Source: a virus (taxonomy: Duplodnaviria; Caudoviricetes). Taken from it: a stretch of 24,679 nucleotides of DNA. Where the stretch lies: positions 1 through 24,679 of the IMG/VR virus record IMGVR_UViG_3300032319_000532. One strand, given 5' to 3'. The translations under genes and the position numbers were made by a program. Shown here piece after piece: positions 5,811-19,473 of this stretch (positions are counted from its first letter, which is position 1; every line of letters begins with the position of its first letter). The notes under the pieces were generated by a model, which ran no database searches, had not been told where the DNA came from, and saw only the letters and a list, made by a program, of their open reading frames with translations.

Positions 5811-5832
5811 TGTCAGTCCCTAGTGCTATACT
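5811..5832 (+). promoter_or_regulatory. PafBC/RecA-NDp-type promoter
   Basis: TGTCAG-N10-TATACT. Confidence 0.8.
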
Positions 5833-5950
5833 AGCGACATAACTAAATAAAAGAAATCTTAGGTGAGCCCCTAGTAATAGGGCAAATAATCCTAAGCAAG
5901 GAAAATAGATAACACAAGGTTATCTAGTATAAAAGAAAGTAGGTCATAAA

Positions 5951-6175
5951 ATGACTAACTATAATAAAACAATTACTAATGAATTAGTAAGTGAGTATGG
6001 TATAGGTATCCTATCATCATCTCATAAGTCCCCCCTTCTCCCTATCCGTATCGCTCAGCGTATCGCTAACAGATACCCTAGTGATTTCTCACAGGGTCGC
6101 TATAATGCGACACTAAACCCTAAAGCGGTCATAATCGCTAAGCGATATATGTCCCTAGTAATGGGGGTCAAGTAA
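5951..6175 (+). CDS. Hypothetical protein
   Basis: 74 aa ORF with RBS. Confidence 0.65.
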   Translation: MTNYNKTITNELVSEYGIGILSSSHKSPLLPIRIAQRIANRYPSDFSQGRYNATLNPKAVIIAKRYMSLVMGVK

Positions 6176-6282
6176 TGACTAATAGAATAATTACTAGCCT
6201 AGTTCAATTAGCCTTAGCGGGTATTGTCATACCCCTATGCTATGCTATCTACCTAGACATAAAGAAAGGCGGACTAAACTAA
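6175..6282 (+). CDS. 35 aa membrane microprotein
   Basis: TAATG-coupled at both ends; hydrophobic core ITSLVQLALAGIVIPLCYAIYL. Confidence 0.55.
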   Translation: MTNRIITSLVQLALAGIVIPLCYAIYLDIKKGGLN

Positions 6283-6428
6283 TGGGATACACTTACTCTT
6301 GGGAAAAGACCTCTACTCTATCCCCCCTTGATTTCATACAAGACCAAAATGATATTTGGGAACAAGAAAACTCAGATGAGTTTCAGTTTATAGATACACC
6401 TGATTTTGACCCCGATGAAATCCTCTAA
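6282..6428 (+). CDS. 48 aa acidic microprotein
   Basis: AAGG RBS, TAATG coupling; MGYTYSWEK...DFDPDEIL. Confidence 0.6.
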   Translation: MGYTYSWEKTSTLSPLDFIQDQNDIWEQENSDEFQFIDTPDFDPDEIL

Positions 6429-6439
6429 ATTTGACAAAA

Positions 6440-6461
6440 TGTCAGACCCTAGTGATATACT
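6440..6461 (+). promoter_or_regulatory. PafBC/RecA-NDp-type promoter
   Basis: TGTCAG-N10-TATACT. Confidence 0.8.
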
Positions 6462-6498
6462 AGGAAATCAACCAACAAAAGAAAAGGAAAAAAAATAA

Positions 6499-6666
6499 AT
6501 GACAGTAGCAAATAAAACATACGCAATCGGCGACCTCTTTACTACACAGCGTAGTAATGTAACAGGAACAATTACAGAAATTGTCCCAGTAACAGAAAAC
6601 CGCACTCGTGTAAAGTTATCGCTTGATAATGGCGAATATCGCTGGACAACAGTAACAATCAAGTAA
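6499..6666 (+). CDS. 55 aa beta-rich (SH3/KOW-like) microprotein, paralog A
   Basis: MTVANKTYAIGDLFTTQRSNVTGTITEIVPVTENRTRVKLSLDNGEYRWTTVTIK; AAGGA RBS. Confidence 0.75.
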   Translation: MTVANKTYAIGDLFTTQRSNVTGTITEIVPVTENRTRVKLSLDNGEYRWTTVTIK

Positions 6667-6684
6667 GTTTAGCAAACGCTAAAA

Positions 6685-6712
6685 TATCCTGAGCAAGATA
6701 AAAAAAGGCTCA
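6685..6712 (+). ncRNA. H-type pseudoknot motif copy 1
   Basis: TATC-ctgagcaa-GATA-A6-gGCTCA. Confidence 0.6.
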
Positions 6713-6749
6713 ACACAAAACCCAACAAAAGAAAAGGATATAAAATATA

Positions 6750-6920
6750 ATGACACTACAAGGATACACTTACCAAATCGGAGATTTATTTACTACAAGC
6801 AAAACAGGCGTTACAGGTCGTATCGCTTCTTTCTCCCCGATTTCTAATAAAGTAACTCGTGTAAATTTAATTTTAGCAAATGGTTCACGCCGTTTCGCTA
6901 TGGTAAAAACAAGCAAGTAA
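6750..6920 (+). CDS. 56 aa beta-rich microprotein, paralog B
   Basis: MTLQGYTYQIGDLFTTSKTGVTGRIASFSPISNKVTRVNLILANGSRRFAMVKTSK. Confidence 0.75.
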   Translation: MTLQGYTYQIGDLFTTSKTGVTGRIASFSPISNKVTRVNLILANGSRRFAMVKTSK

Positions 6921-6936
6921 TGTTATACTAAATATA

Positions 6937-7015
6937 ATTAAGTGGGTCGGGCTTCGCTGAGTCTCGAGGCAAGAGTGCGAGTAAGTCTCCGTAATCAACC
7001 TATGCCCCACTTAAT
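6937..7015 (+). ncRNA. Candidate structured RNA or leader
   Basis: 10-bp closing stem ATTAAGTGGG/CCCACTTAAT starting ~7 nt after TGTTATACT. Confidence 0.4.
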
Positions 7016-7046
7016 CTATTAACTAAAGAAAAGGAAAAGAACAAAA

Positions 7047-7229
7047 ATGATGACAAGAAAAGACTATGTAGCAACCGCAGAAATTCTAAACTCTTATGGT
7101 GATGAAATTCCGCAACAAGTTTTTGAAGATTTAGTCTATGATTTTTCACAAATGTTTTCAGATGATAACGAAAAATTTGATAGCGATAGATTTCACGAAG
7201 AAGTTTATAAAAATCTAAAACACGCATAA
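7047..7229 (+). CDS. Hypothetical phage protein (MMTRKDY family), paralog A
   Basis: AAGGA RBS; similar to 9012..9206. Confidence 0.8.
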   Translation: MMTRKDYVATAEILNSYGDEIPQQVFEDLVYDFSQMFSDDNEKFDSDRFHEEVYKNLKHA

Positions 7230-7235
7230 AAAAAT

Positions 7236-7261
7236 AACCTGAGCAAGTTTCAAAACTGCTC
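7236..7261 (+). ncRNA. H-type pseudoknot motif copy 2
   Basis: AAC-ctgagcaa-GTT-tcaaaac-TGCTC. Confidence 0.55.
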
Positions 7262-7286
7262 CCAGCTTTTTCAAGATCATCAGCGT

Positions 7287-7302
7287 TCGAACATCTGTTC
7301 GA
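7287..7302. promoter_or_regulatory. Actinobacterial/Gram-positive LexA (SOS) box
   Basis: TCGAAC-atct-GTTCGA, perfect match to TCGAAC-N4-GTTCGA. Confidence 0.8.
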
Positions 7303-7323
7303 AAGCGTCGATGGATCGATGAG

Positions 7324-7356
7324 TTATCCACAGGTTTATACACAGGCTGTGGATTA
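7324..7356. promoter_or_regulatory. Cluster of three DnaA boxes
   Basis: TTATCCACA (7324), TTATACACA (7336), inverted TGTGGATTA (7348, 1 mismatch). Confidence 0.75.
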
Positions 7357-7358
7357 TT

Positions 7359-7380
7359 GTTCACCTGTTGTTCATCTTGA
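7359..7380 (+). promoter_or_regulatory. PhoP/RegX3-type (OmpR family) 11-bp direct repeat
   Basis: GTTCACCTGTT GTTCATCTTGA. Confidence 0.55.
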
Positions 7381-7403
7381 AATCCTGCGACACGCCGAGG
7401 AAA

Positions 7404-7425
7404 TGTCAGTGGTGCCTGTTATACT
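7404..7425 (+). promoter_or_regulatory. PafBC/RecA-NDp-type promoter
   Basis: TGTCAG-N10-TATACT. Confidence 0.8.
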
Positions 7426-7477
7426 TACAGCATAAAGAAAGTTGAGAAAGGTTCTCAAACTAGAAAGGTGGTCTAAA

Positions 7478-7651
7478 ATGACTACATATACACTAAACAC
7501 TCTCCCTGTAGAGTATGCAAATAAAATTGTTTGCGCCTTCTGTTCACAATACGCTAATGAAAATTTCTGCGTATCTTGTAATGAATACAAGGGTCTAATG
7601 ACTCTTGCAGAATTTATGTCCTACTATGAAATAAGTGAGTGGGTAAAATAA
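7478..7651 (+). CDS. Zinc-finger-like microprotein
   Basis: AAGGTGG RBS; CAFC...CVSC. Confidence 0.7.
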   Translation: MTTYTLNTLPVEYANKIVCAFCSQYANENFCVSCNEYKGLMTLAEFMSYYEISEWVK

Positions 7652-7863
7652 TGAGTAATATAGAAATATTCCGTATGGATAATAATGGTGCTGGTTGGGT
7701 AGATATTGAATCTGCCACTACCGCAGAATTATTGGATTTAGAATTAGCAATAACATTCAATGCTCCAATGCAAATGCAATGTTTCAAATGTCATACACCA
7801 ATTCCAAAAGGAAATGTGTGTGTAAATCACAAAAATGTAAAAGGAGGAATTTACCTTGGATAA
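7651..7863 (+). CDS. Zinc-finger-like microprotein
   Basis: TAATG coupling; CFKC...CVNH. Confidence 0.65.
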   Translation: MSNIEIFRMDNNGAGWVDIESATTAELLDLELAITFNAPMQMQCFKCHTPIPKGNVCVNHKNVKGGIYLG

Positions 7864-7969
7864 TAAAAATACAAAAGATATTTTTGGTTTTGCAGATGCA
7901 ATTGAAATTGAACATCTTAGCACTGAAGATTTAAAAATTGTTGAATTAATTTTTAAAGATTTCAAATAA
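7856..7969 (+). CDS. 37 aa hypothetical protein
   Basis: AGGAGG RBS before TTG; ends just before terminator. Confidence 0.5.
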   Translation: MDNKNTKDIFGFADAIEIEHLSTEDLKIVELIFKDFK

Positions 7970-7971
7970 AT

Positions 7972-8009
7972 AAAAAAAAGATTTGCAGTGTAACAGCTGC
8001 AAATTTTTT
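7972..8009 (+). terminator. Intrinsic terminator (repeated type)
   Basis: ATTTGCAG/CTGCAAAT stem plus T-run; same type at 9350 and 10536. Confidence 0.75.
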
Positions 8010-8230
8010 GATCGACGCACTCGGGCGTGTCGCATGTGATTAAGAACACATAAATATTTTTACGGAATACGGCGTGTCGGCTTGACTTTTGCGATATAGT
8101 GTGCTATAATACTCGTATATAAAATTAAATAATGGAATAAAGCGTGTGATGCAAATCACACCGCTGAGCGTCTCAAAGGTTGAGACTACCAGCCAGTATA
8201 CTAGACAGTAGCGATATTATCTGTTATACT
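7995..8230 (+). repeat. Regulatory cassette copy
   Basis: GATCGACGCACTCGGGCGTGTCGC core, CRP boxes 8035 and 8145, TTGACT-N17-TATAAT (8082), TCTCA-N5-TGAGA (8171), two TAC-N6-GTA, TAGACA-N17-TATACT. Confidence 0.8.
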
Positions 8231-8264
8231 TCCAGTATTAGAAAATAAAGAAAGGTGGTCTAAA

Positions 8265-8435
8265 ATGACTACACTAAATGAAACACTATTCAGCACAATC
8301 GTGCACGAATACCATAATGGCGGTGTCAAATCCTCTTATGGATTAGACGCTTACACTCGTAAAGAATTGCTAAAATTCTTATTCTCTAGCAAAGGTTGCT
8401 ATTGCATAAATTGTATCTCTAAGGAGTCTAAATAA
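8265..8435 (+). CDS. 56 aa hypothetical protein (CxCxxC)
   Basis: AAGGTGG RBS; TAATG coupling to next gene. Confidence 0.65.
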   Translation: MTTLNETLFSTIVHEYHNGGVKSSYGLDAYTRKELLKFLFSSKGCYCINCISKESK

Positions 8436-8674
8436 TGAGTCTCTCTCTTGCTAATAAATTGGCAGAAAATAAATTCTTTCTGCCCCCTTCAAAATATACT
8501 AACCACAAAGTCGTGGAAATAATTTCGCTAAATGACGAAACCAATACCGCTATGGTAAAACTTCAAAAATATGGAATTAGCAAAAGTGCTAATGCCGTAA
8601 AAGGTAATATAATAATCTTAGAATTACCTTATGCTGAATTCGAAAATCTAAATGGATGGGGTAAAAATAAATGA
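8435..8674 (+). CDS. Hypothetical protein
   Basis: AAGGAG RBS; 79 aa. Confidence 0.7.
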   Translation: MSLSLANKLAENKFFLPPSKYTNHKVVEIISLNDETNTAMVKLQKYGISKSANAVKGNIIILELPYAEFENLNGWGKNK

Positions 8675-8799
8675 ACCTTGATGAATATAAACAATATGTA
8701 GAGGCGCAACGCCTCTCATCTCTTGCAATAGCGTTAGACGCTCTCCGCAAATCAAATGCAATGATGGAAAAAAACGGTTACTTAGAGGAGAATAAATAA
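8671..8799 (+). CDS. 42 aa helical microprotein (MNLxEYK family), paralog A
   Basis: ATGA overlap; similar to 9568..9687. Confidence 0.65.
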   Translation: MNLDEYKQYVEAQRLSSLAIALDALRKSNAMMEKNGYLEENK

Positions 8800-9011
8800 T
8801 GACTATTAAAATTGGTGGGCTTGGTCAAGAGATTTCTTGCTATTGCCCAGTATGCTCAGAAAAAATGACTCATATGTGTATTGCTACTCTTGGCGGTATG
8901 CATAGAAAAGGCACAATCCGCTATGCGTGGCAATGCAATTCTTGCGAATTAGAATTAAAATCAGATGCAAATGGTTATGCTAAATTACTAAAAGAAATGG
9001 AAAATGTATAA
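8799..9011 (+). CDS. Zinc-ribbon-like protein
   Basis: GAGGAG RBS; CPVC...CNSC. Confidence 0.7.
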   Translation: MTIKIGGLGQEISCYCPVCSEKMTHMCIATLGGMHRKGTIRYAWQCNSCELELKSDANGYAKLLKEMENV

Positions 9012-9206
9012 ATGATGACTCGTAAAGACTATGTAAAAGTAGCAACAATCCTAAATGATATTGCTAAACCTAATATGGATATGATCCCGTTTGAGGATTT
9101 GGTAAATGAATTTGCAGATATGTTTTTTGCAGACAATCCAAATTTCTCTCCTAACCGATTTGAAATGGCTTGCTATGGTAACGATGAAATGGCGGATGTT
9201 AAATAA
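9012..9206 (+). CDS. Hypothetical phage protein (MMTRKDY family), paralog B
   Basis: MMTRKDYV...FEDLV..F..MF..DN..F...RF shared with 7047..7229. Confidence 0.8.
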   Translation: MMTRKDYVKVATILNDIAKPNMDMIPFEDLVNEFADMFFADNPNFSPNRFEMACYGNDEMADVK

Positions 9207-9346
9207 TGATTAACCTAACAAAAAAAGAAATTGGAACAATTATTTTTTCATTAGAGGAATATGCAAATATTCTTGAAATTCAAAACAGCATTGATGCAAG
9301 AAATAATATTTTTGAATTAATTTGGAAATTGGATGGTATAAAATAA
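9206..9346 (+). CDS. 46 aa hypothetical protein
   Basis: TAATG coupling; ends before terminator. Confidence 0.55.
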   Translation: MINLTKKEIGTIIFSLEEYANILEIQNSIDARNNIFELIWKLDGIK

Positions 9347-9349
9347 AAT

Positions 9350-9384
9350 AAAGATTTGCAGTTTGAAAAAGCTGCAAATTTTTT
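9350..9384 (+). terminator. Intrinsic terminator (repeated type)
   Basis: ATTTGCAG/CTGCAAAT stem plus T-run. Confidence 0.75.
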
Positions 9385-9514
9385 GATCGACGCACTCGGG
9401 CGTGTCGCCACGCTTACGTGCGATGTGATATTTATCACGGGGGATACGATGTGATATTTATCACACGGGTTGAGCGTCTCAAAATATGAAATTACTGGCT
9501 AGTAAGTAGCCAAA
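9370..9514 (+). repeat. Regulatory cassette copy
   Basis: 9370-9441 matches 10556-10627 at 70/72 nt; CRP boxes 9424 and 9450; TCTCA-N5-TGAAA; TTACTGGCTAGTAA. Confidence 0.85.
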
Positions 9515-9536
9515 TGTCAGTGGGTTTTGGTATACT
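9515..9536 (+). promoter_or_regulatory. PafBC/RecA-NDp-type promoter
   Basis: TGTCAG-N10-TATACT. Confidence 0.8.
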
Positions 9537-9567
9537 TGCCATATCAAGAAAGAAAGAAGGTCAAAGA

Positions 9568-9687
9568 ATGAACCTAGAGGAATATAAGGCGTATGTCCTA
9601 GCGACACGCAAAGAAAACGCATTGAAGGCTATGTCAGTGCTAAGTGCTACAATATCTACCAAGAAAGAAAAGGAAGGTGCTAACTAA
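9568..9687 (+). CDS. 39 aa microprotein (MNLxEYK family), paralog B
   Basis: AAGG RBS; MNLEEYKAYVLATRKENALKAMSVLSATISTKKEKEGAN. Confidence 0.65.
   Translation: MNLEEYKAYVLATRKENALKAMSVLSATISTKKEKEGAN
9632..9653 (+). promoter_or_regulatory. PafBC/RecA-NDp-type promoter (inside CDS)
   Basis: TGTCAG-N10-TACAAT. Confidence 0.75.
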
Positions 9688-9914
9688 TGGCAACTTATAA
9701 ATACAATATCCCTACACTACTAGAGGGAAAATACTATCGCTCACTCTCCCGTCATATTGACGGAATTATCCAATACGCAGAAAAGCGTGAAAATGTTTGG
9801 TATGGTCAAGGATTTGACGCATACCTTGTAAAAGTGCGCCCTACTTATAAAGGCGACGGAATATTCCGTAATGATTTTTACGCAACAGTTTGCGTTCAGA
9901 TGGAGGATAACTAA
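9687..9914 (+). CDS. Hypothetical protein
   Basis: 75 aa; RBS and TAATG coupling. Confidence 0.7.
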   Translation: MATYKYNIPTLLEGKYYRSLSRHIDGIIQYAEKRENVWYGQGFDAYLVKVRPTYKGDGIFRNDFYATVCVQMEDN

Positions 9915-10021
9915 TGAATATCTTTATCTGTTCTAATTGTGATACGCTTGCCACTGTGTCAGTGGCAGGTGATACAATACAAATAACAAAATGCTTATGT
10001 ATGTCAAGAAAGGACAACTAA
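9914..10021 (+). CDS. 35 aa Cys-rich microprotein
   Basis: GGAGG RBS; CSNC...CLC; coupled at both ends. Confidence 0.6.
   Translation: MNIFICSNCDTLATVSVAGDTIQITKCLCMSRKDN
9957..9978 (+). promoter_or_regulatory. PafBC/RecA-NDp-type promoter (inside CDS)
   Basis: TGTCAG-N10-TACAAT. Confidence 0.75.
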
Positions 10022-10206
10022 TGTCAAATATGAAAAATGCGTTAGAGCAAATCGTAAATTGCTCAGATTGCTATGGTCAAGGCGTAACTGGCTGGACTAG
10101 CCCTGATGGAGATTTTGATTTTGATTATTGCGATTGCAACCCATACAATATCCCCGCAGATGAGGTTGCGGAATATCATCAACTATTCGCAGGAAGCGAG
10201 GCTTAA
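10021..10206 (+). CDS. Small CxxCxGxG zinc-binding protein
   Basis: AAGGA RBS; CSDCYGQG...CDC. Confidence 0.7.
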   Translation: MSNMKNALEQIVNCSDCYGQGVTGWTSPDGDFDFDYCDCNPYNIPADEVAEYHQLFAGSEA

Positions 10207-10208
10207 CA

Positions 10209-10418
10209 ATGTATAAAATAACTGTAACCTATGACGAAAATCCCGCTCCTTATTTATCACTACAATACTCAGATGAATTGCAAGCACACAAAGAGTTTGC
10301 AAAGTTTGTTGATTGGGGATTTGCAGATAAATATTCTACTGTGAATCTTTACACGCCATCAGGCAAATGCTACACAAAAATATTTTATCGGGAAGGCAGA
10401 AGGGTTGTTGAAAAATAA
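10209..10418 (+). CDS. Hypothetical protein
   Basis: GAGG RBS; 69 aa. Confidence 0.7.
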   Translation: MYKITVTYDENPAPYLSLQYSDELQAHKEFAKFVDWGFADKYSTVNLYTPSGKCYTKIFYREGRRVVEK

Positions 10419-10422
10419 AATT

Positions 10423-10533
10423 ATGGAAAAAGTAAAACGCATTCAGGAGTTGCGTCGCAGTAATGCTGCGACTGCAATTCCGTCAAAGAAAAAATACACA
10501 CGCAAAAAAAAATATAAAAATAAATTTGAATAA
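10423..10533 (+). CDS. 36 aa highly basic peptide
   Basis: MEKVKRIQELRRSNAATAIPSKKKYTRKKKYKNKFE; ends before terminator. Confidence 0.6.
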   Translation: MEKVKRIQELRRSNAATAIPSKKKYTRKKKYKNKFE

Positions 10534-10535
10534 AT

Positions 10536-10570
10536 AAAAAAAGATTTGTGGCGCAAGCTGCAAATTTTTT
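10536..10570 (+). terminator. Intrinsic terminator (repeated type)
   Basis: ATTTGTGGC-gcaa-GCTGCAAAT plus T-run. Confidence 0.75.
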
Positions 10571-10673
10571 GATCGACGGGCTCGGGCGTGTCGCCACGCT
10601 TACGTGCGATGTGATATTTATCACGGGACTTTGTGTCTCATTATGAGAGACTTACGGCGTGTCGTGTTGATAA
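10556..10673 (+). repeat. Regulatory cassette copy
   Basis: Near-identical to 9370-9441; two GGCGTGTC; CRP box 10610. Confidence 0.85.
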
Positions 10674-10695
10674 TGTCAGTGCAACCTGATATACT
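10674..10695 (+). promoter_or_regulatory. PafBC/RecA-NDp-type promoter
   Basis: TGTCAG-N10-TATACT. Confidence 0.8.
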
Positions 10696-10723
10696 TCCAT
10701 TATTCCAAAAGAAAGGTAAACTA

Positions 10724-10909
10724 ATGAAAAAAGATAATTCTATTTCTATCTACGATGTATTCTCAGATGAGGATACTACTTGCTCAACTTGCATAGGCTT
10801 AGCCCTTGCTAACCCGTCTACCCTATGCGATACCCACTTTTTTGAGTGGGCGGAGGAAAAGGCTTATGGAGAACTAGAACGCTCCGAGGACTATTTCCAC
10901 CTAATCTAA
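10724..10909 (+). CDS. Small CxxC...CxxH protein
   Basis: AAGG RBS before ATG 10724. Confidence 0.65.
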   Translation: MKKDNSISIYDVFSDEDTTCSTCIGLALANPSTLCDTHFFEWAEEKAYGELERSEDYFHLI

Positions 10910-10910
10910 A

Positions 10911-10932
10911 TGTCAGTGCCCCCTGATATAAT
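10911..10932 (+). promoter_or_regulatory. PafBC/RecA-NDp-type promoter
   Basis: TGTCAG-N10-TATAAT. Confidence 0.8.
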
Positions 10933-10962
10933 ACTACTATCCCAACAACGAAAGGTTATCAA

Positions 10963-11247
10963 ATGATAGCAACTGCCCTGAAAATACAAAACGCTTCTGC
11001 GGAAGCCCTAATCTCAAATGAAGTTATGGAAGTCGCTCGTGAAGTCTCTATGGAATTATGCGATGGAGACTATTCTAAACTAAATCGTATTGCAGAACTT
11101 ATGTTCAAGTATTCTGCAACACTATCCGCTATGACCGCTACAACAGTGGCATATGCCTGCCTAGGTAATGATATGATGGATAAAATTGCAGATGAAATTC
11201 GAGAATTTGAAACACTAACCCAACAAATAGAAAAGGAAAATAACTAA
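10963..11247 (+). CDS. Hypothetical helical protein
   Basis: 94 aa; AAGG RBS. Confidence 0.75.
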   Translation: MIATALKIQNASAEALISNEVMEVAREVSMELCDGDYSKLNRIAELMFKYSATLSAMTATTVAYACLGNDMMDKIADEIREFETLTQQIEKENN

Positions 11248-11507
11248 TGAAAATGCACGACTTAGATACTAATGGATGGAATGCTTATCCGTTCGAGGTT
11301 GACGGAATAAAGTTTATTTCTAAAATCTCTCCAGACTCATCCTTCATGCCTAGAATCAAAATGCTACCTAGTGGCGTGTTTGAATCTATGAATCGCAGTG
11401 CAGTGCTTGACTTGATAGGTAAAGGCTTATCTCGTGAGGAAATTGCACAAGAACTATATCGTATAAACGCAGATGGCTCTCACGCCGTAATAGAATTGGA
11501 GATGTAA
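11247..11507 (+). CDS. Hypothetical protein
   Basis: 86 aa; AAGGA RBS. Confidence 0.7.
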   Translation: MKMHDLDTNGWNAYPFEVDGIKFISKISPDSSFMPRIKMLPSGVFESMNRSAVLDLIGKGLSREEIAQELYRINADGSHAVIELEM

Positions 11508-11510
11508 ATA

Positions 11511-11816: not shown

Positions 11817-11949
11817 CGTTATGGAAATATTAGCGCAGTGGCATCCTGATGGAGACTTTACTGAAGAGGACCTATGGGATGCAATTGCAGAATCTGAAGG
11901 CGTTGACGTAAATGAAATCTCTGATCGTGACCTAACTGAATTTATCTAA
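11809..11949 (+). CDS. 46 aa acidic microprotein
   Basis: Overlaps upstream stop; MSNVMEILAQWHPDGDFTEEDLWDAIAESE. Confidence 0.6.
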   Translation: MSNVMEILAQWHPDGDFTEEDLWDAIAESEGVDVNEISDRDLTEFI

Positions 11950-12261: not shown

Positions 12262-13323
12262 ATGACAAATGTCATCGCACCACAATCCCCCGTTGGAAAT
12301 TCTGCACACAAGTCAGAAATTCAAGAAGGTTCTGCGACTCTTGCAGTAAATCTCCGCACAAATCCTGCTTGGCACTCGTTTGCTAATAAGGTATTCTCAC
12401 AAGATGAGGCTGTTACTACTGCCCAAATGTTGCAAGGTGCAAATCTTGCAAATTGGAATGTTCAATTAGAATCTGTTAGTGATTTGCTTGCAGATAACTA
12501 TACAACAGTTTCAGATAACTATCTCGTAGTTCGTGATAACCCACAAACTGCAGGACAAAAAGATGTTCTTTCTGTTGTAGGCTCACGCTATAAGACAGTT
12601 CAAAATGAAGATTTATTTGCGTTTGCAGATAATATCCACGATGGCAATCCTGATGTAGTTTGGGAATCTGCAGGTTCATTGAAAAATGGTCGTGTAGTTT
12701 ATGGCTCTATGGCTATTCCACGCTCTATGATTCTTGACCCACAAGGTGCAAATGATGAGACAAAACTTTATCTCATTGTTTGGACTTCACACGATGGTTC
12801 TGTTGCGGTGCAATCTGCAATCACTCCTGTTCGTGTTATGTGCCAAAACACTCTAAATCTTGCGATGAAGCGTGCTAAGCAATCATTCAAGATTCGCCAC
12901 ACTCAAACAGTAGATGGAAAAATTGCTGCTGCTCGTGAGGCTCTTGGTTTGACTTTCGCATACTTTGATGAGTTTGAGAAAGAAGCACAAGAATTGTTCG
13001 CTCTTGAGGTGAACAATAAAAAGTTCTCTGAAATCATCAACAAAATTTATCCTAAGCCTGAAATGGATAAAAAGGGTTCAATCAAAAAGTGGGAAAATAA
13101 AGTTGTCCTGCTTGATGAGTTGTATCATAACTCACCTACAAATGCCAATATCAAAGGCACTGCGTGGGGCGTTGTAAATGCACTCACCGAACGCCTTGAT
13201 TACTATCGCACTGCTCGCAAGGGTAGCGGTGAATCACTAATGGCAGGTGCTAGTGGGTTTGACCCAGTTGTAACTGCAGAAAAAAATAAAATCGTAAAGC
13301 AAGTTCTTGCACTAGCGAAATAA
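12262..13323 (+). CDS. DUF932-family phage/plasmid protein
   Basis: PAWH, VGSRYKTVQNEDLF, ESAGSLKNG, SHDGS, TPVRVMCQNTL, IRHT, GTAWGVVNALTE motifs; start moved to ATG 12262 (RBS, downstream of promoter). Confidence 0.88.
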   Translation: MTNVIAPQSPVGNSAHKSEIQEGSATLAVNLRTNPAWHSFANKVFSQDEAVTTAQMLQGANLANWNVQLESVSDLLADNYTTVSDNYLVVRDNPQTAGQKDVLSVVGSRYKTVQNEDLFAFADNIHDGNPDVVWESAGSLKNGRVVYGSMAIPRSMILDPQGANDETKLYLIVWTSHDGSVAVQSAITPVRVMCQNTLNLAMKRAKQSFKIRHTQTVDGKIAAAREALGLTFAYFDEFEKEAQELFALEVNNKKFSEIINKIYPKPEMDKKGSIKKWENKVVLLDELYHNSPTNANIKGTAWGVVNALTERLDYYRTARKGSGESLMAGASGFDPVVTAEKNKIVKQVLALAK

Positions 13324-13331
13324 AATTCGCA

Positions 13332-13359
13332 ACACCTGAGCAAGTGTATAAACTGCTCA
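13332..13359 (+). ncRNA. H-type pseudoknot motif copy 3
   Basis: ACAC-ctgagcaa-GTGT-ataaac-TGCTCA. Confidence 0.6.
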
Positions 13360-13366
13360 CCTTATT

Positions 13367-13440
13367 GGTCTGTTAGAATAGTTGGTTAGTTCGCCACCCT
13401 GTCACGGTGGAGGTCACGGGTTCAAGTCCCGTACAGATCG
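13367..13440 (+). tRNA. tRNA-Asp(GTC)
   Basis: Acceptor GGTCTGT/ACAGATC, anticodon stem CCACC/GGTGG with loop CTGTCAC, T arm ACGGG-TTCAAGT-CCCGT, discriminator G; no encoded CCA. Confidence 0.95.
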
Positions 13441-13449
13441 CAAAGCTTT

Positions 13450-13487
13450 GATTTATAAATATGCATTGCAATGTATAATTATACAGC
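13450..13487. promoter_or_regulatory. Tandem ARG boxes (ArgR-type)
   Basis: TTTAT-aaat-ATGCA and TGTAT-aatt-ATACA; two 18-mers 2 bp apart. Confidence 0.55.
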
Positions 13488-13489
13488 GC

Positions 13490-13584
13490 CGTCGACGGGC
13501 TCGGGCGTGTCGGGGATTACGTGATGAATCTCACATTACGGGAGCGTCTCAGATACTGGAATTACTGGCGGGTAGATAGATAAA
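13490..13584 (+). repeat. Regulatory cassette copy
   Basis: GTCGACGGGCTCGGGCGTGTCG, CRP box 13520, TCTCA-N5-TGGAA, TTACTGGCGGGTA. Confidence 0.8.
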
Positions 13585-13606
13585 TGTCAGTGCTATACGC
13601 TATAAT
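13585..13606 (+). promoter_or_regulatory. PafBC/RecA-NDp-type promoter
   Basis: TGTCAG-N10-TATAAT, ATG 7 nt downstream (leaderless). Confidence 0.8.
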
Positions 13607-13613
13607 TCTTGGT

Positions 13614-14285
13614 ATGACACAGAACTGGTTCAAATATGATTATGTATGCTCAATTTGTGATGCACTAATTGAAATTACTAATAAATCTAATGTATATAAA
13701 CCACATATGTGTTGTGGCATAGAGGCAAACTGGTTGTCAGTGGTCAATGCTACAATATACCCAACCGAAAAGAAAGAAGAAACCAATATGGAAACAACAA
13801 CACTTCGTGAACAAATTATTCAGGAAATGGAATTGCGTTATGGCAACGAAATTACTGAACTGAAAAATCAAATTGCTAATTCAACAATAAAATTAGACTT
13901 CGTTGAAAATGATGAAGTAACTACAAAATCATACAGCGAGTCAGATGTTCGTGCTTTGGTTTATCGTGATAAATCTTATCAAACAAAAATGAACGAATAC
14001 TATCGTAAAGAAAGCCAACTTCGCACACTACTTGAAAATGTTTATGCTGATTCTAACGAACAAGATACACTTACAGAAATTGCTGAAATCTTTGATGTTC
14101 CACTAACTAAGGAAATTGAAGTAACCGCTTATATCCGTGTTGATATGACTATTGAAATTGATATGGCAGAAGGCGACTATGATATTGAAGATATGGTTCG
14201 TAACCAACTAACTGTTGATTCATTTGGTTCAGAGATTAGCGTCAATGACTACAATGTAGACCGAGTAGAAGAAGGTGCTTACTAA
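13614..14285 (+). CDS. Hypothetical protein with N-terminal Cys motif and probable internal start at 13788
   Basis: Leaderless ATG 13614; CSIC...CCG; internal promoter 13735 and in-frame ATG 13788. Confidence 0.75.
   Translation: MTQNWFKYDYVCSICDALIEITNKSNVYKPHMCCGIEANWLSVVNATIYPTEKKEETNMETTTLREQIIQEMELRYGNEITELKNQIANSTIKLDFVENDEVTTKSYSESDVRALVYRDKSYQTKMNEYYRKESQLRTLLENVYADSNEQDTLTEIAEIFDVPLTKEIEVTAYIRVDMTIEIDMAEGDYDIEDMVRNQLTVDSFGSEISVNDYNVDRVEEGAY
13735..13756 (+). promoter_or_regulatory. PafBC/RecA-NDp-type promoter (inside CDS)
   Basis: TGTCAG-N10-TACAAT. Confidence 0.75.
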
Positions 14286-14512
14286 TGGCAGTTATTACCC
14301 TACAAGTCCCTTCCCGTGCCCAAATGGGCTACGGGTTGGGCAAGGCTATGCAGTTTGGCGTTGAATATGAAGTGCTAGATAATCTTCAGGTTGAACTAAC
14401 TTCAGCAGATGAACTAAAACTGGCTAAGATGATGGTAGCCTTTCAAGGCAAAATTGTAGATTCCGTGATCCAAAAAAATGTCCGTGTAGACCACCCAAGA
14501 CACGAGTCATAA
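14285..14512 (+). CDS. Hypothetical protein
   Basis: 75 aa; TAATG coupling. Confidence 0.7.
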   Translation: MAVITLQVPSRAQMGYGLGKAMQFGVEYEVLDNLQVELTSADELKLAKMMVAFQGKIVDSVIQKNVRVDHPRHES

Positions 14513-14534
14513 TGTCAGACCCCCCTGCTATAAT
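14513..14534 (+). promoter_or_regulatory. PafBC/RecA-NDp-type promoter
   Basis: TGTCAG-N10-TATAAT. Confidence 0.8.
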
Positions 14535-14540
14535 AGGGGG

Positions 14541-14600
14541 TAACGAAACAGGGGCAGTTTGCTAGAGTTCTAGCCCAATGTCGTAAGTAAGAACTAGCAC
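14541..14600 (+). ncRNA. Candidate small structured RNA
   Basis: Sits between two promoters with no ORF; AAAC/GTTT hairpin, TGCTAG..GTTCT/AGAAC-TAGCA stem, loop-loop GGGC/GCCC. Confidence 0.4.
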
Positions 14601-14609
14601 CTAAGTTTA

Positions 14610-14631
14610 TGTCAGACCCCTCTGATATAAT
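14610..14631 (+). promoter_or_regulatory. PafBC/RecA-NDp-type promoter
   Basis: TGTCAG-N10-TATAAT. Confidence 0.8.
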
Positions 14632-14664
14632 AATCCATAACAACCCAACTAACAAAGGAAAAAA

Positions 14665-15081
14665 ATGAGTAGAGCAATCACAGTAAAGGTGGCAACACCA
14701 AAGGTAATCAAGGCACTAGAAACTCGTCTAGCAACACTAGAAAAAGACTACGCCTCACAAGAAGCCAACGAAGCAAAGTATAACAAGGCGCACGAAGCGT
14801 GGAAAAAGCAAATTGGCGAGTGGGCTATTGCCAACTTCTCAAAGGCTGAAAACCTACGCACAAGTTATCGCTCTTGGAGTAATAATCTAAATGTAGATTT
14901 TGATATTACTGTAAAGGAAGGCAATTTCCCTACTGAGCCTGAGCGTGATTTTGAGCAAATTCATCAGCACACTTATCGTGAGATGAAAGAGGATATTACT
15001 AACGCCCTCACAATTCTCAAGATGACAGATGAGGAAACAGTAAATGCTTCTACTATGAAGCAAATCGCTAAGTATCTCTAA
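14665..15081 (+). CDS. Hypothetical phage protein (coiled-coil N-terminus)
   Basis: 138 aa; AAGGA RBS. Confidence 0.8.
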   Translation: MSRAITVKVATPKVIKALETRLATLEKDYASQEANEAKYNKAHEAWKKQIGEWAIANFSKAENLRTSYRSWSNNLNVDFDITVKEGNFPTEPERDFEQIHQHTYREMKEDITNALTILKMTDEETVNASTMKQIAKYL

Positions 15082-15087
15082 TAGGCT

Positions 15088-15117
15088 TGGGGGACTCTTT
15101 GGGGAGTCCCCCACTTT
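15088..15117 (+). terminator. GC-rich hairpin, probable terminator
   Basis: TGGGGGACTC/GAGTCCCCCA right after stop codon. Confidence 0.55.
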
Positions 15118-15157
15118 CCCACTTTACAAGAACTAGAAAATAGGATAGGATAGGCAA

Positions 15158-15226
15158 ATGACAAACTTCATAATTCTAGCCGTAATAGCAATCGCACTTC
15201 TAATCGCTTTTGGGGGGATAATCTAA
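15158..15226 (+). CDS. 22 aa transmembrane peptide
   Basis: MTNFIILAVIAIALLIAFGGII; abuts next start. Confidence 0.45.
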   Translation: MTNFIILAVIAIALLIAFGGII

Positions 15227-15601
15227 ATGGGAGCACGAGTCAATTTTGTATTCAAGACAAACAAAGAACAAACCTATTTAGTTTTATACTCACATTGGGG
15301 CGAAACATCTTGGCGACAAGATTTGGCTTCAGCACTTGATAAAGCAAGACCACGCTGGACAGATGATTCATATTGTTTGCGAATTATTATAGACCAACTA
15401 ACAAGAGAAGGTCGGGATTCAGAAACTGGATTCGGAATCTTTTTAGCAAACAGAGATGAATTATCATTTTTAGATTCACCTGTAATTATTGACACACAAG
15501 CAATGTGGGTTGAAGATGGTGGAACAGAACATTCGTGGAATTCGTTTTGCGAATATCACTTGGAAGAAATTCCAAACAATCACGATTTTACAAACGTGTA
15601 A
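15227..15601 (+). CDS. Hypothetical phage protein
   Basis: 124 aa; MGARVNF...LYSHWG. Confidence 0.75.
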   Translation: MGARVNFVFKTNKEQTYLVLYSHWGETSWRQDLASALDKARPRWTDDSYCLRIIIDQLTREGRDSETGFGIFLANRDELSFLDSPVIIDTQAMWVEDGGTEHSWNSFCEYHLEEIPNNHDFTNV

Positions 15602-15708
15602 ATAAAGTTGGGTGGGGTGTAAAAACCCCACTTCAATTCGCCAGGCTGATTAGGGCGATCACAGAAATACTATAGAGCACAGTTGGTGGAGGACTGAAAG
15701 AATCCGCA

Positions 15709-15736
15709 ATTCCTAAGCATGAATCAAAAAGGCTTA
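15709..15736 (+). ncRNA. H-type pseudoknot motif copy 4
   Basis: ATTC-ctaagcat-GAAT-caaaaag-GCTTA; compensatory change in stem 2. Confidence 0.6.
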
Positions 15737-15749
15737 TTTTTTTTTGCAA

Positions 15750-15901
15750 AGCTGCGGGTCGATTTTGAAAATCAGACAAATCAGACATTACGTAAATGTA
15801 TATTTAATCACGGGGATTATGAAGGTGTGATAAATATCACGGGTATTACGTCTCATATAATGATATCCTACTAGACAGTAACTTTTACGATATGGTATTA
15901 T
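15750..15901 (+). repeat. Degenerate regulatory cassette
   Basis: GTCGA, TTACG-N16-CACGGG, CRP box 15826, TCTCA-N5-TGATA, TACTAGACAGTA, TAGACA-N18-TATTAT. Confidence 0.65.
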
Positions 15902-15934
15902 GAACCCTATAAACCCAACTACCAAAGGATAAAT

Positions 15935-16360
15935 ATGAGAGATAGAATAAAGGGATATAAAGGCAATAAACTGGATGGCAAGAAGCTTGCCAAGATTGCC
16001 AATGATATCTATCGTTTGCAGTATAGCAATGATTTTAGCGAATGTACAGTAGATAATCTATTATTGATTGAACTAGAAGAAAAGAATGTATTTGGAGATC
16101 CCAAGTATGCTGTTCTATGTAGTGAAGGTGTAGGATGGGAACAAGATAATTATGGCTGTCTTGAAATCCCGACCAATATTGGGCAATGGGGTTCATGGAA
16201 TGGAAGAGTCTTTATCTCAGTAGACACAGTAAAGTCTTGTCAAACTATTTTCCAAGAAGATGTATCTGAGTATATTAGAACATTTGGAGATAGATTAGAT
16301 AGTAACTGTTCCCTATGGCAGTCTAAAATGTCAGTGGCACCTGCTACAATACTAGCATGA
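15935..16360 (+). CDS. Hypothetical protein
   Basis: 141 aa; AAGGA RBS. Confidence 0.75.
   Translation: MRDRIKGYKGNKLDGKKLAKIANDIYRLQYSNDFSECTVDNLLLIELEEKNVFGDPKYAVLCSEGVGWEQDNYGCLEIPTNIGQWGSWNGRVFISVDTVKSCQTIFQEDVSEYIRTFGDRLDSNCSLWQSKMSVAPATILA
16329..16350 (+). promoter_or_regulatory. PafBC/RecA-NDp-type promoter (inside CDS)
   Basis: TGTCAG-N10-TACAAT; ATG 6 nt downstream. Confidence 0.8.
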
Positions 16361-16590
16361 TAAACATGGATGAACTTGAGACATTACGTATATATGAGAT
16401 AGATTATTCTGTCTCACCAGGGGGTATAAATCAATTTGAGGTGTATCCTGATTTAGATAGTCCTAATGATAATACTGGATATCCCCTATATGAGACAACT
16501 AATTTAGCAGATGCTTGTTTATTTGCTTATAACTTAGGATGCAACTTCAAGGTATATACCCTAGCGCAATATGAGTTATCCCATGCTTGA
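16357..16590 (+). CDS. Hypothetical protein
   Basis: 77 aa, leaderless and ATGA-coupled. Confidence 0.65.
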   Translation: MINMDELETLRIYEIDYSVSPGGINQFEVYPDLDSPNDNTGYPLYETTNLADACLFAYNLGCNFKVYTLAQYELSHA

Positions 16591-16810
16591 TATAATGGAA
16601 GGATTATATGGGGATGCATTCTCTGATATTCCCGCCGTTTACGAAGATAGATCTTTTACACGGGAGCAAATCCAAGATGCTAAACTAATTGGATATACAG
16701 AGGATGACCATGTGATTCTCCAGCTTTTAGACAAATCAATTACGATTGTCTACTCCATAGATATAGACTGGCTGCTCTATGATGAGGCTACTGACAAGGT
16801 GCGGGACTAG
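16571..16810 (+). CDS. Hypothetical acidic protein
   Basis: 79 aa; true start may be ATG 16583. Confidence 0.6.
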   Translation: MSYPMLDIMEGLYGDAFSDIPAVYEDRSFTREQIQDAKLIGYTEDDHVILQLLDKSITIVYSIDIDWLLYDEATDKVRD

Positions 16811-16815
16811 CCAAA

Positions 16816-16837
16816 TGTCAGTGCTATCTGATACAAT
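16816..16837 (+). promoter_or_regulatory. PafBC/RecA-NDp-type promoter
   Basis: TGTCAG-N10-TACAAT. Confidence 0.8.
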
Positions 16838-16867
16838 AGCATAATCAACCAACAGAAAGGTAATACA

Positions 16868-17041
16868 ATGGACAACCCAACTAAATCTTATATTGTTTAT
16901 GGGGCAACTATTCAGCACTTAGAAATTCGAGTAGAGGCAACTTCCGAACAAGAAGCAACAGATAAAGCCACATCTATTCCACTTTCAGATTGGGATATGG
17001 GCGACTTCGAGTTCCAACTAGGTTTTACTGAGGAGGCGTAA
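16868..17041 (+). CDS. 57 aa hypothetical protein
   Basis: AAGG RBS; VEATSEQEA motif; TAATG coupling. Confidence 0.65.
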   Translation: MDNPTKSYIVYGATIQHLEIRVEATSEQEATDKATSIPLSDWDMGDFEFQLGFTEEA

Positions 17042-17778
17042 TGCCAAACTGGGTATATAACGGACTAACTATTGAAGGTCCAAAAGAATCTGTAATCAAA
17101 CTCAAAGAACAAATGAATACTCCCTTTGTGGACTATATTGAATCTAATGGTGATTTAGCCTTTGGTGTAAAGCAAACAAAGTATTCTAATCCTATCTTTA
17201 GTTTTAGAAACATCATTGCTCCCACCGACCTTGAAGCATATAAAGAACAACCTGTTCGCTCTGAACTATCTGCAACTGACCCTAATTGGTGGGCAGACAT
17301 ACAAGAAAAATCTAAAACAGATAACTCTTGGTATAACTGGAATCTTCGCAACTGGGGAACTAAATGGGATGTAGCCGTATCTAATGATAACGAGTATCCT
17401 GATACATATATGGAGGAACATGAAAACGGCGAAAACTATGTAGTTTATTATAACTTTAATACTGCATGGGGAACTCCTGATGTAGCAATAAGTAATCTCT
17501 CATCTCAATATCCCGACCTACTCTTCACACTATCATATGAAGAAGAGACAGGCTGGGGTGGAGAAGCAGAGTTTCTTCGTGGTGAAATCATTAGTCAATC
17601 TGAGTATGGTTGGCAATGCCGTGAATGTGATAACACAGAAGATGACACACCTTGGTGTGAATCATGTGAATTTGATATGTGTCCTAAATGTGGCTATGGT
17701 GAGCCAACAGATGAAGATAGAGCACAATGTCAGACCCATATGATACAATCAGAAACCCAACTAAAGGAGAATGCATAA
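17041..17778 (+). CDS. DUF1281/YubB-like ferredoxin-fold protein with C-terminal Cys cluster
   Basis: MPNWVYN, WYNWNLRNWGTKWD, FNTAWGTP, YEEETGWGG; three CxxC. Confidence 0.75.
   Translation: MPNWVYNGLTIEGPKESVIKLKEQMNTPFVDYIESNGDLAFGVKQTKYSNPIFSFRNIIAPTDLEAYKEQPVRSELSATDPNWWADIQEKSKTDNSWYNWNLRNWGTKWDVAVSNDNEYPDTYMEEHENGENYVVYYNFNTAWGTPDVAISNLSSQYPDLLFTLSYEEETGWGGEAEFLRGEIISQSEYGWQCRECDNTEDDTPWCESCEFDMCPKCGYGEPTDEDRAQCQTHMIQSETQLKENA
17728..17749 (+). promoter_or_regulatory. PafBC/RecA-NDp-type promoter (inside CDS)
   Basis: TGTCAG-N10-TACAAT. Confidence 0.75.
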
Positions 17779-17891
17779 TGAACGAGTGCTGTATATGTGA
17801 AAGTAATGCTGATTACATAACAATTGAAGGTGGTTGGTATGTATGCAAAGAATGTATTGAAACTGGCAAATCAGACGGATTGGGAGCATAA
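17778..17891 (+). CDS. 37 aa zinc-finger-like microprotein
   Basis: AGGAG RBS; CCIC...CKEC. Confidence 0.65.
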   Translation: MNECCICESNADYITIEGGWYVCKECIETGKSDGLGA

Positions 17892-18166
17892 TGGAAACAA
17901 TGGAACTAGACCCTTATCTGCAGAGACAGGTTGAACTTGGAATGGACGGTGCAGATATTTTGCACGGACATTTGAAAACACTTATGGTTGAAGCAGAGCA
18001 ACAACTAACACTTGCTCAAGAAGCGGAAGATGAATCAGGTGAAGCAATGGATTCAATGGAACGCAAATACTGGGAAGGTGTTATGGATACCTATGGAGAA
18101 CTATATGCAATCACATATGCAATTGCATTTGCTAAAGAGGAGCCACTAAATAATGGGCATGTATGA
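17891..18166 (+). CDS. Acidic helical hypothetical protein
   Basis: 91 aa; GGAG RBS. Confidence 0.7.
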   Translation: METMELDPYLQRQVELGMDGADILHGHLKTLMVEAEQQLTLAQEAEDESGEAMDSMERKYWEGVMDTYGELYAITYAIAFAKEEPLNNGHV

Positions 18167-18389
18167 TGAATCCTGGTGTGCCTCATGTGGTGCAGGTATG
18201 CACTACACAGCAGATGAGACTGCGGTATGTGGTGAATGTGCACATAACGAAATCCTAGGCTATATAAAGCAACGCAAAGAAGAATTAGAAGCAGACTATG
18301 ATATGACTACAGAAGTAGATATGGCTCATTACTATGAAGGTGGTATTGAAGTCCTTGATGAGATACTAACTAAATTTGGAGGATACTAA
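18153..18389 (+). CDS. Acidic zinc-finger-like protein
   Basis: CASC...CGEC; GAGGAG RBS. Confidence 0.7.
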   Translation: MGMYDESWCASCGAGMHYTADETAVCGECAHNEILGYIKQRKEELEADYDMTTEVDMAHYYEGGIEVLDEILTKFGGY

Positions 18390-18604
18390 TGGCTGAGCAA
18401 TTTATAGATACAATAGCAGAGCACATTACAGGTGCAATGCAACAAGAAATTGCAGAACACTTATTTGACCAATGGTCTGCAAAAAATTGTGATGAGGGTC
18501 CTGATTACGCAGAGCATATGTTTATGCAATTTGCGTCAGATGACCTAAAGCAACAGTATAACGAATACTATGGCTATATTGAGGGAGATGAGTTTCTACT
18601 ATGA
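18389..18604 (+). CDS. Acidic hypothetical protein
   Basis: GGAGG RBS; 71 aa. Confidence 0.7.
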   Translation: MAEQFIDTIAEHITGAMQQEIAEHLFDQWSAKNCDEGPDYAEHMFMQFASDDLKQQYNEYYGYIEGDEFLL

Positions 18605-18777
18605 TGTTAGGATATGATATAGAAGATATTAGCATTATGCAGGAATGCATAGAGACTGCTAAAAAGTTTTACCTATCTCATCCCTCCGATCTAATGGATA
18701 AAACAAGAATTACAACTGGATTGGAGCAAGCCAATTCATTCTTTGATGGCCTATGGGCAGAAGGATACTTTGACTAA
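18601..18777 (+). CDS. 58 aa hypothetical protein
   Basis: ATGA overlap; MMLGYDIED...GLWAEGYFD. Confidence 0.6.
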   Translation: MMLGYDIEDISIMQECIETAKKFYLSHPSDLMDKTRITTGLEQANSFFDGLWAEGYFD

Positions 18778-18799
18778 TGTCAGTTGTATCTTGTATAAT
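18778..18799 (+). promoter_or_regulatory. PafBC/RecA-NDp-type promoter
   Basis: TGTCAG-N10-TATAAT. Confidence 0.75.
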
Positions 18800-19472: not shown

Positions 19473-19473
19473 T

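Follow-up and report, generated by a model that had tools for sequence, protein, structure and literature searches.

The window analyzed here, which is the whole 24.7-kb stretch of phage DNA from IMG/VR record IMGVR_UViG_3300032319_000532, contains 17 predicted early promoters that would be transcribed by the host SigA polymerase and are probably activated by the host regulator PafBC through a -26 box; for some of these promoters, host CRP is a predicted additional activator. The window (36% GC) carries ribonucleotide reductase, glycosyltransferase and HNH genes, followed by an island of ~43 co-oriented, mostly small open reading frames (ORFs) of unknown function (5633–19767, + strand), and the promoters lie within this island.

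The motif TGTCAG-N10-TANNNT was matched 17 times, on the + strand throughout and only between 5811 and 18799, with no match elsewhere in the window, versus a mean of 0.25 ± 0.46 (maximum 2) in 100 shuffled controls. When spacers of 5–19 nt were compared, 10 nt gave the 17 matches and each other length 0–3. All boxes have the same orientation and lie 10 nt ahead of a -10 element that precedes a gene. The GTC triplet is invariant (17/17), the box reads TGTCAGTG at 11 sites and TGTCAGAC at four, an extended -10 TG is present at 15, and the -10 hexamer conforms to TAYAMT at all 17. These results reproduce the original prediction, made from the sequence of the window, in its 17 exact coordinates and their strand, its 11 TGTCAGTG copies and 15 extended -10 elements, its constant spacer (10 nt being the only length enriched, 17 versus at most 3) and its statement that the motif is absent beyond the island. 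With the transcription start site (TSS) predicted at 7 nt past the -10, the leaders would be 18–46 nt long and purine-rich at 13 sites and 112–124 nt long at two; the 16329 site is predicted to be leaderless, its TSS being exactly ATG 16357, and the TSS of the 13585 site falls within 1 nt of an ATG.

Regulators with a WYL domain are host sensors of single-stranded DNA (ssDNA) that serve repair and anti-phage defense. The published PafBC consensus, tGTCgg(N10)tA(N3)T, places TGTCRG at -28 to -23, where residues R46 and R50 of PafB read the invariant GTC triplet (PMC8635444), and the correspondence with established PafBC promoter geometry that had been claimed for the window agrees with it. PafBC requires ssDNA, including that in gaps and at resected ends (PMC11804915), and drives the recA P1 promoter in part even without added damage; ClgR/ClpR is an older proposed reader of the P1 motif (PMC5656591). 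In Moraxellaceae a WYL activator controls both repair and defense genes (PMC12392091).

The likely host is a Nanopelagicaceae-type actinobacterium, and the habitat is probably freshwater. Within the window, an actinobacterial host is indicated by the mRNAs predicted to be leaderless, by the WhiA boxes and by an ORF (22865–23137) with a HemA dimerization domain. That domain is rare in Nanopelagicaceae (2 of 41 genomes), so a family member with a larger genome, or a different lineage, may be the host. A collection-wide scan for the strict motif, used solely to reach host genomes, returned mostly scattered single matches in unrelated taxa, with two from Nanopelagicaceae among the 80 listed of 122 loci; these two genomes (G005 and G006), which are thus motif-selected, have pafB and pafC in tandem. 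A PafB homologue (E<1e-30) was identified in 60 of 61 Nanopelagicaceae genomes, the remaining one giving a weak match, and the PafC helix-turn-helix (HTH) scored above its threshold in 144 of the 151 class genomes (141 of 148 without the unpublished G092, G097 and G103), so that the proposal to look for pafBC in the predicted host had a positive outcome for the candidate hosts. The PafB of the candidate hosts has a helix, E-A/S-K-E-R-M-F-E-R-D-K, in which the R-x3-R spacing, judged without alignment to M. smegmatis PafB, fits E42/A43/R46/R50/K52 of the published protein (PMC8635444).

The box itself is also present in the candidate hosts. Of 41 genomes, 34 gave a RecA match, and in the 450 nt upstream of the 30 recA loci taken, GTC-N12-TANNNT occurred at 30/30, with other spacers at no more than 4/30. 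The host recA box has the consensus YGTC(A>G)GTGG, with A at position 5 in 21 and TG at positions 7–8 in most of the 33 sites, and the A-variant with its following TG in the phage is therefore the host family's own form. Further genes preceded by the box are carD, DUF6504 and LysM genes in both G005 and G006, as well as an exonuclease or PD-(D/E)XK nuclease gene, one in each, and strict counts in these genomes were 17 versus 6 in the reversed control (clear) and 16 versus 12 (weak), respectively. For a UV-inducible Streptomyces coelicolor gene with a RecA-NDp promoter, a printed primer contains TGTCAGTG-N8-TACGGT upstream (PMC5087735). The host PafBC-type boxes were seen to cluster in one 30–65 kb island, at 926–991 kb in G005 (12/17 sites), 464–520 kb in G006 (9/16) and 477–507 kb in G033 (9/13), with no such cluster seen in G007, G019, G022 or G035. 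In G005 and G006 the clustered boxes precede N6/N4 and C5 DNA methylase, VWA, TPR and S8 peptidase genes, and the cluster may be a damage-inducible defense island.

It might be argued that TGTCAG is read by a phage-encoded factor, either a MotA-like activator or a repressor that later closes the early block, and that the likeness to PafBC is convergent or ancestral; the original prediction had itself raised an activator of the phage's own as its alternative. The phage box is stricter than that of the host (TGTCAG at 17/17 versus the four host recA variants CGTCAG, CGTCGG, TGTCAG and TGTCCT), most island ORFs are without a family, promoters with plain -35 elements inside the island could supply a factor first, and the phage relative G003 encodes one HTH_17 protein and a WhiB. 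Set against this are the exact 10-nt spacing and the TG at positions 7–8, neither of which a phage-only factor would require and which are common to the host recA promoters (30/30), and the outcome of the searches for such a factor. No WYL domain was found in Samisti12 or in the four relatives G001–G004, which are complete IMG/VR records of 100–115 kb; no sigma or WYL protein was found in 150 of the 151 G003 ORFs of at least 60 aa, a scan that missed ORFs across fetch boundaries; and the six-frame translations of the window, G001, G003 and G004 contained no segment like the PafB/C HTH, with positive controls at E<1e-30. The suggestion to look through the rest of the phage for WYL or activator genes was thus followed in the relatives, where no WYL, PafB/C-like or sigma protein was recognized. 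The most conserved island protein (138 aa, 14665–15081; 62–86% identity in three relatives) matched only unnamed viral clusters in an Atlas search and so has no named family there. A phage factor, for instance an activator of novel fold, is in our judgment unlikely, and all tests that could be run favor host PafBC over a phage-made look-alike.

Across the phage set, the hexamer is invariant in 173 non-redundant TGTCAG promoters (of 281 sites) while the letters of the 10-nt spacer are free, the identical box and spacing stand ahead of host recA, and the published structure credits the position of the box to PafB and not to sigma (PMC8635444). These observations are difficult to reconcile with plain, strong SigA extended -10 promoters that need no regulator and in which TGTCAG would belong to the basal promoter or have arisen incidentally as promoter cassettes were duplicated. 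Such promoters would explain the TG at 15/17 sites and the near-consensus -10 at 17/17, intergenic cassettes are visibly duplicated (a 73-nt repeat in three copies), and cultured relatives drive the homologous block from -35 promoters; even so, we regard this explanation as very improbable. What the -10 elements do affect is the way in which PafBC would act. Because they are far nearer to the consensus than those of the host (TAYAMT at 17/17 versus 2/30), it is more likely that PafBC boosts these promoters than that it strictly gates them. The proposal that the host DNA-damage response serves as the switch for these genes therefore agrees with the box, the geometry and the host pafBC, but the word switch may overstate the case, as the -10 elements possibly fire unaided.

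The TGTCAG class had been described correctly, but two kinds of companion box, which are phased CRP-type and WhiA-consensus boxes, had been missed at these promoters. To count them, the island was taken as 5400–20300 and the expectation was obtained by simulation; the CRP-, LexA- and DnaA-type labels follow the generally known consensus sequences. Eleven CRP-type palindromes, YGTGA-N6-TCACR, lie inside the island (5767–20216; at 5767, 8145, 9424, 9450, 10610, 12134, 12159, 13520, 15826, 20103 and 20201) and two outside it (simulated mean 0.05). The ten copies of GACACGCC (5536–13511), on the + strand at 5536 and 7389 and on the - strand at 8031, 8078, 9406, 10592, 10663, 12058, 12105 and 13511, are all inside the island, with none outside (simulated mean 0.13). 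This sequence is the 8-bp WhiA consensus (PMC13473873); upstream of the -35 element, GACAC is recognized by WhiA on either strand (PMC10243135). The segment 7284–7344 holds one LexA-type box, CGAAC-N4-GTTCG, at 7288 (simulated mean 0.00), followed by two DnaA-type boxes at 7324 and 7336, a number that on its own is within chance (mean 0.22). The LexA-type palindrome is perfect, CGAACATCTGTTCG, with identical letters at host loci L333 and L344; a perfect box of this type was not seen in G001, G003 or G004. In those three relatives 22/22 CRP-type boxes and 17/18 copies of GACACGCC are inside the island, and in the phage set GACACGCC recurs at -46 (seven promoters) and -53 (eight promoters), positions at which the plain -35 promoters of the window also have boxes of this type. 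Upstream of host recA at loci L367, L371, L372 and L364 there is a GGCGTGTC whose TGTC sits in PafBC register, and the -10 in register overlaps a LexA box; WhiA-type and PafBC-type boxes can therefore coincide.

The CRP-type boxes keep helical phase. Among the 173 non-redundant promoters, 50 have such a box 20–120 nt upstream, with peaks at 44, 54 and 64–65 nt (a phasing of ~10.5 bp), a minority at 49–50 nt and none closer than 43 nt to TGTCAG. After removal of promoters whose intervening DNA was ≥55% alike, 20 of the 28 boxes kept within 40–100 nt were in phase (R=0.52, p=0.0003 versus uniform), and with stricter removal at 50% likeness 18 of 26 were (p=0.0017). A location at least 43 nt upstream, in whole helical turns, fits co-activation through the C-terminal domain of the polymerase alpha subunit (alpha-CTD). 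The four candidate host genomes surveyed each have one CRP and one WhiA (4/4), and neither gene was found in the relative G003. Host CRP is the likely reader of the palindromes, which we treat as predicted sites.

In view of this accumulation, the boxes could instead be decoys on constitutive SigA extended -10 promoters, titrating PafBC-polymerase, CRP, WhiA, LexA and DnaA and thereby blunting host repair, defense and cell-cycle programs. Consensus-grade sites for host regulators do pile up in the island (WhiA 10, CRP 11, LexA 1, DnaA 2) and in that of the relatives, several companion boxes are 105–185 nt from any promoter, and the phage sites are nearer to consensus than the host ones. A decoy, however, needs neither a fixed, co-oriented placement 10 nt before the -10 elements of genes nor the helical phase of the CRP-type boxes, and a single incoming genome would offer few sites before replication; we therefore rate this as quite unlikely. 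We also entertain, as a tentative proposal, that the whole early program is a combinatorial code read by host activators in a widespread family of lytic actinophages, and it is no less speculative that in such a code PafBC would report the ssDNA alarm, CRP the carbon/cAMP state and WhiA (perhaps with phage WhiB) the cell cycle.

The companion boxes and -35 elements are distributed over the 17 promoters, all on the + strand, as follows. Promoter 1 (5811–5832, TGTCAG-N10-TATACT) has a CRP-type box that starts 44 nt upstream (5767), promoter 2 (6440–6461) is dual, with a TTGACA at 19 nt as well, and promoter 3 (7404–7425) has the GACACGCC at 7389. CRP-type boxes at 9450 (65 nt upstream) and 9424 belong to promoter 4 (9515–9536); promoter 5 (9632–9653) lies within the upstream small ORF, and promoter 6 (9957–9978) also has a TTGCCA at 19 nt. 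Promoter 7 (10674–10695) combines a CRP-type box at 10610 (64 nt upstream), GGCGTGTC at -46 and a TTGATA at 17 nt, and is followed by promoter 8 (10911–10932). Promoter 9 (12209–12230), ahead of the DUF932 gene, has CRP-type boxes at 12159 (50 nt, off phase) and 12134 and a TGGACA at 18 nt, and the predicted near-leaderless promoter 10 (13585–13606; ATG 13614) has one at 13520 (65 nt upstream). Then come promoters 11 (13735–13756), 12 (14513–14534), 13 (14610–14631), 14 (16329–16350, the predicted leaderless one) and 15 (16816–16837), promoter 16 (17728–17749), within the 3' end of ORF 17041–17778, and promoter 17 (18778–18799), with a TTGACT at 18 nt. A good -35 element is missing at 12 of the 17. 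A degenerate 18th copy, TGTCAT-N10-TATGCT (6225–6246, +), precedes the ORF at 6282.

Four plain -35 promoters, also on the + strand, were identified: TTGACT-17-TATAGT at the island edge (5554–5582, -10 at 5577; GACACGCC at -53) and, inside the island, TTGACT-17-TATAAT (8082–8110, -10 at 8105; GGCGTGTC at -46), TAGACA-17-TATACT (8202–8230, -10 at 8225; CRP-type box at 8145) and TAGACA-18-TATTAT (15872–15901, -10 at 15896; CRP-type box at 15826). TTGACA-type promoters do occur outside the island, where the original prediction had placed them, but they are not confined there. Short inverted repeats surround the -10 of three TGTCAG promoters, at 5817–5834 (promoter 5811), 6447–6463 (promoter 6440, CCTAG...CTAGG) and 14520–14540 (promoter 14513, CCCCCT...AGGGGG), and might act as operators or form extrudable hairpins; a short RNA may start from promoter 14513, ahead of promoter 14610. 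The duplicated 73-nt intergenic cassette (7994–8066, 9369–9441 and 10555–10627) consists of a T-run, a WhiA-type box and a CRP-type box, in that order, which suggests that regulatory modules spread by duplication. L5-type stoperators were rejected as an identity for TGTCAG because the box is tied to the -10 at fixed spacing.

Several observations weigh against activation by host PafBC and CRP. The CRP-type centers, at -64.5, -74.5 and -84.5/-85.5, are displaced by ~3 bp from those of E. coli class I promoters (-61.5/-71.5/-82.5), and none of 30 host PafBC-type sites has a CRP-type box, for which reasons CRP is considered the likely and not the proven reader; as the center positions differ, the palindromes are termed CRP-type and not members of class I. 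Perfect TGTGA-N6-TCACA was absent from five host genomes (0/5; control 1), a result uninformative on host spacing. The phage box is always TGTCAG, which is more invariant than the GTC readout of PafB demands, and a 5/6 or 6/6 match to TTGACA at 17–19 nt accompanies the box at five of the 17 sites (background ~2.5%), whereas published PafBC promoters are without a -35 element and silent without PafBC (PMC8635444). Host -10 elements are weaker than those of the phage (TAYAMT 2/30 versus 17/17; extended TG 7/30 versus 15/17), the strict counts in five further host genomes (8–13) are not above the reversed control (7–12), and the host assignment is itself indirect. The relatives G001–G004 were picked for carrying the motif. 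Sixteen cultured actinophage genomes, chosen by DUF932 homology plus Weasels2, have no cluster of the strict motif and 0–4 scattered matches each, and the terminal-repeat promoters of Samisti12 and Karimac mostly have TAGACA-type -35 elements (TGTC is in register at 4/8 listed promoters in Samisti12 and 0/8 in Karimac). Because these two phages rely mostly on -35 promoters, the homologous block can run without the box; and since, among the phages checked, the dense motif was found only in the family of the window, we consider it an adaptation and not a general feature.

The window belongs to a family of 100–115 kb, whiB-encoding actinophages related to the Streptomyces BE phages. The strict motif occurs in ~950 IMG/VR stretches (estimated from 9/64 parts), and in G001–G004, respectively, 11/11, 13/15, 14/16 and 14/15 of the motif sites are inside one 9–11 kb block. 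Between 20 and 23 of the 64 window ORFs match G001, G003 or G004, and the reductase is 81% identical in two of these. G003 encodes WhiB, RecA, DnaE and SSB, and WhiB is a marker of freshwater actinophages (PMC10202952; PMC10914622). Among phage records, DUF932 is matched best by Streptomyces BE phages (~50% identity), and 38 of the 40 listed reductase matches are Streptomyces phages at 63%, with the top two rows a Puniceispirillum phage at equal identity. In Samisti12 the DUF932 block appears to lie inside a ~10.7 kb terminal repeat, as judged from a duplicated match at 8038 and 131082, bordered by gene 22 and an HNH gene on the opposite strand. The window shows a mirror image of this layout, in which a gene 22 homologue (4534–4770, +) and an HNH gene (4991–5371, -) stand at the island border. 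Owing to this synteny, we interpret the island as an early, terminal-repeat block.

Based on these data, infection could proceed as follows. The island, from its synteny, would be the terminal-repeat and first-expressed part of the genome, and the near-consensus extended -10 elements, the five -35 elements among the 17 sites and the four plain promoters would allow an unaided start. Once ssDNA appears, PafB would read GTC at -28 to -23 and PafC would bridge to sigma domain 4, so that output rises, as is established for mycobacteria and extrapolated here to the phage. The ssDNA might arise as the incoming linear DNA is processed, from attack by nucleases, from degradation of host DNA or from earlier UV damage. 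As PafBC would occupy sigma domain 4, a co-activator would be limited to contacting the alpha-CTD from upstream. The likely benefit is that host-takeover or anti-defense genes would go up on the same signal as host repair and, in certain hosts, the methylase-rich island.

The promoters share with the PafBC (RecA-NDp or recA P1) promoters of Mycobacterium and other Actinobacteria TGTCRG at -28 to -23, a 10-nt spacer, a SigA-type TANNNT and an invariant GTC (PMC8635444, PMC11804915, PMC5656591). Unlike those host promoters, the 17 phage copies are packed into 13 kb before uncharacterized small genes and not before repair genes, their -10 elements are extended and near-consensus, some have a -35 element, and many have CRP-type or WhiA-type boxes. 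In the middle promoters of T4 (MotA/AsiA sigma appropriation) an activator box likewise replaces the -35 element at a fixed distance from a housekeeping -10 (PMC8635444), but T4 encodes both its activator and co-activator, whereas the box in the window is that of a host regulon and no phage activator was found. As in temperate phages coupled to the RecA/LexA SOS response, such as lambda with its CI cleavage, expression would be tied to the host ssDNA alarm (PMC12392091); lambda-type phages, however, relieve repression to exit lysogeny, whereas the promoters of the window would positively activate early genes through a LexA-independent branch. No integrase or repressor was found among the phage ORFs scanned. 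The Streptomyces BE/BK phages (Stanwilliamsviridae: Samisti12, Karimac and Gilson) resemble the window in a DUF932 gene of 38–51% identity and in small co-oriented genes with their own promoters, and Samisti12 also in its border genes, but their terminal repeats have no strict-motif cluster. With class I CRP promoters the window shares TGTGA-N6-TCACA palindromes upstream in helical steps, although its centers are further upstream than in E. coli and are paired with a PafBC-type box. WhiA/WhiB-activated promoters similarly have the 8-bp GACACGCC in either orientation upstream of the -35 region (PMC10243135, PMC13473873).

Other features of the window include the only two Pfam families found among the ~43 island ORFs, DUF932 (12262–13323) and DUF1281_C (an Api92-like gene at 17041–17778), and a tRNA-Asp(GTC) gene (13367–13441) inside the island directly after the former. 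Tiny island genes form paralogous pairs (7047–7229 with 9012–9206, and 8671–8799 with 9568–9687; also 6499–6920), all of which are matched in relatives. The gene-poor distal end (19780–20560), with four 38-nt GACATTACG...AAATTCACGGGA repeats and two CRP-type boxes, is a possible genome terminus, packaging site or origin; GACATTACG occurs at the corresponding island end in relatives, two of which also have DnaA-type boxes there. The 90-aa protein of ORF 22865–23137 (- strand) is a stand-alone HemA (glutamyl-tRNA reductase) dimerization domain (Pfam E=1.4e-7) with 38–43% identity to the HemA C-termini of two Nanopelagicaceae (significant by direct tblastn); a search for full-length relatives gave no match at E≤0.001. 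It may be a dominant-negative form or a modulator of host heme synthesis.

A study by Rafique et al. (2025, ACS Infect Dis) is said to concern pafBC and mycobacteriophage resistance and may bear on the PafBC claim. In the openly available main texts searched, PafBC-type promoters were not found described for any phage, nor was counter-defense logic of the following kind. If host PafBC does activate these promoters, the first genes of the phage would be under a host ssDNA activator, infection itself would generate the PafBC signal, and the alarm of the host would become the start signal of the phage. Phage lysis of abundant low-GC actinobacteria would in that case be linked to sunlight damage and to the nutrient state. 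With their helical phasing, the CRP-type boxes are well suited to showing whether an activator bound further upstream can work together with sigma adaptation. Should the more tentative combinatorial code also hold, takeover and anti-defense genes would fire with the alarm that induces host repair genes and a methylase-rich defense island, and UV and nutrient state would pace the lysis of the dominant bacteria of lakes.

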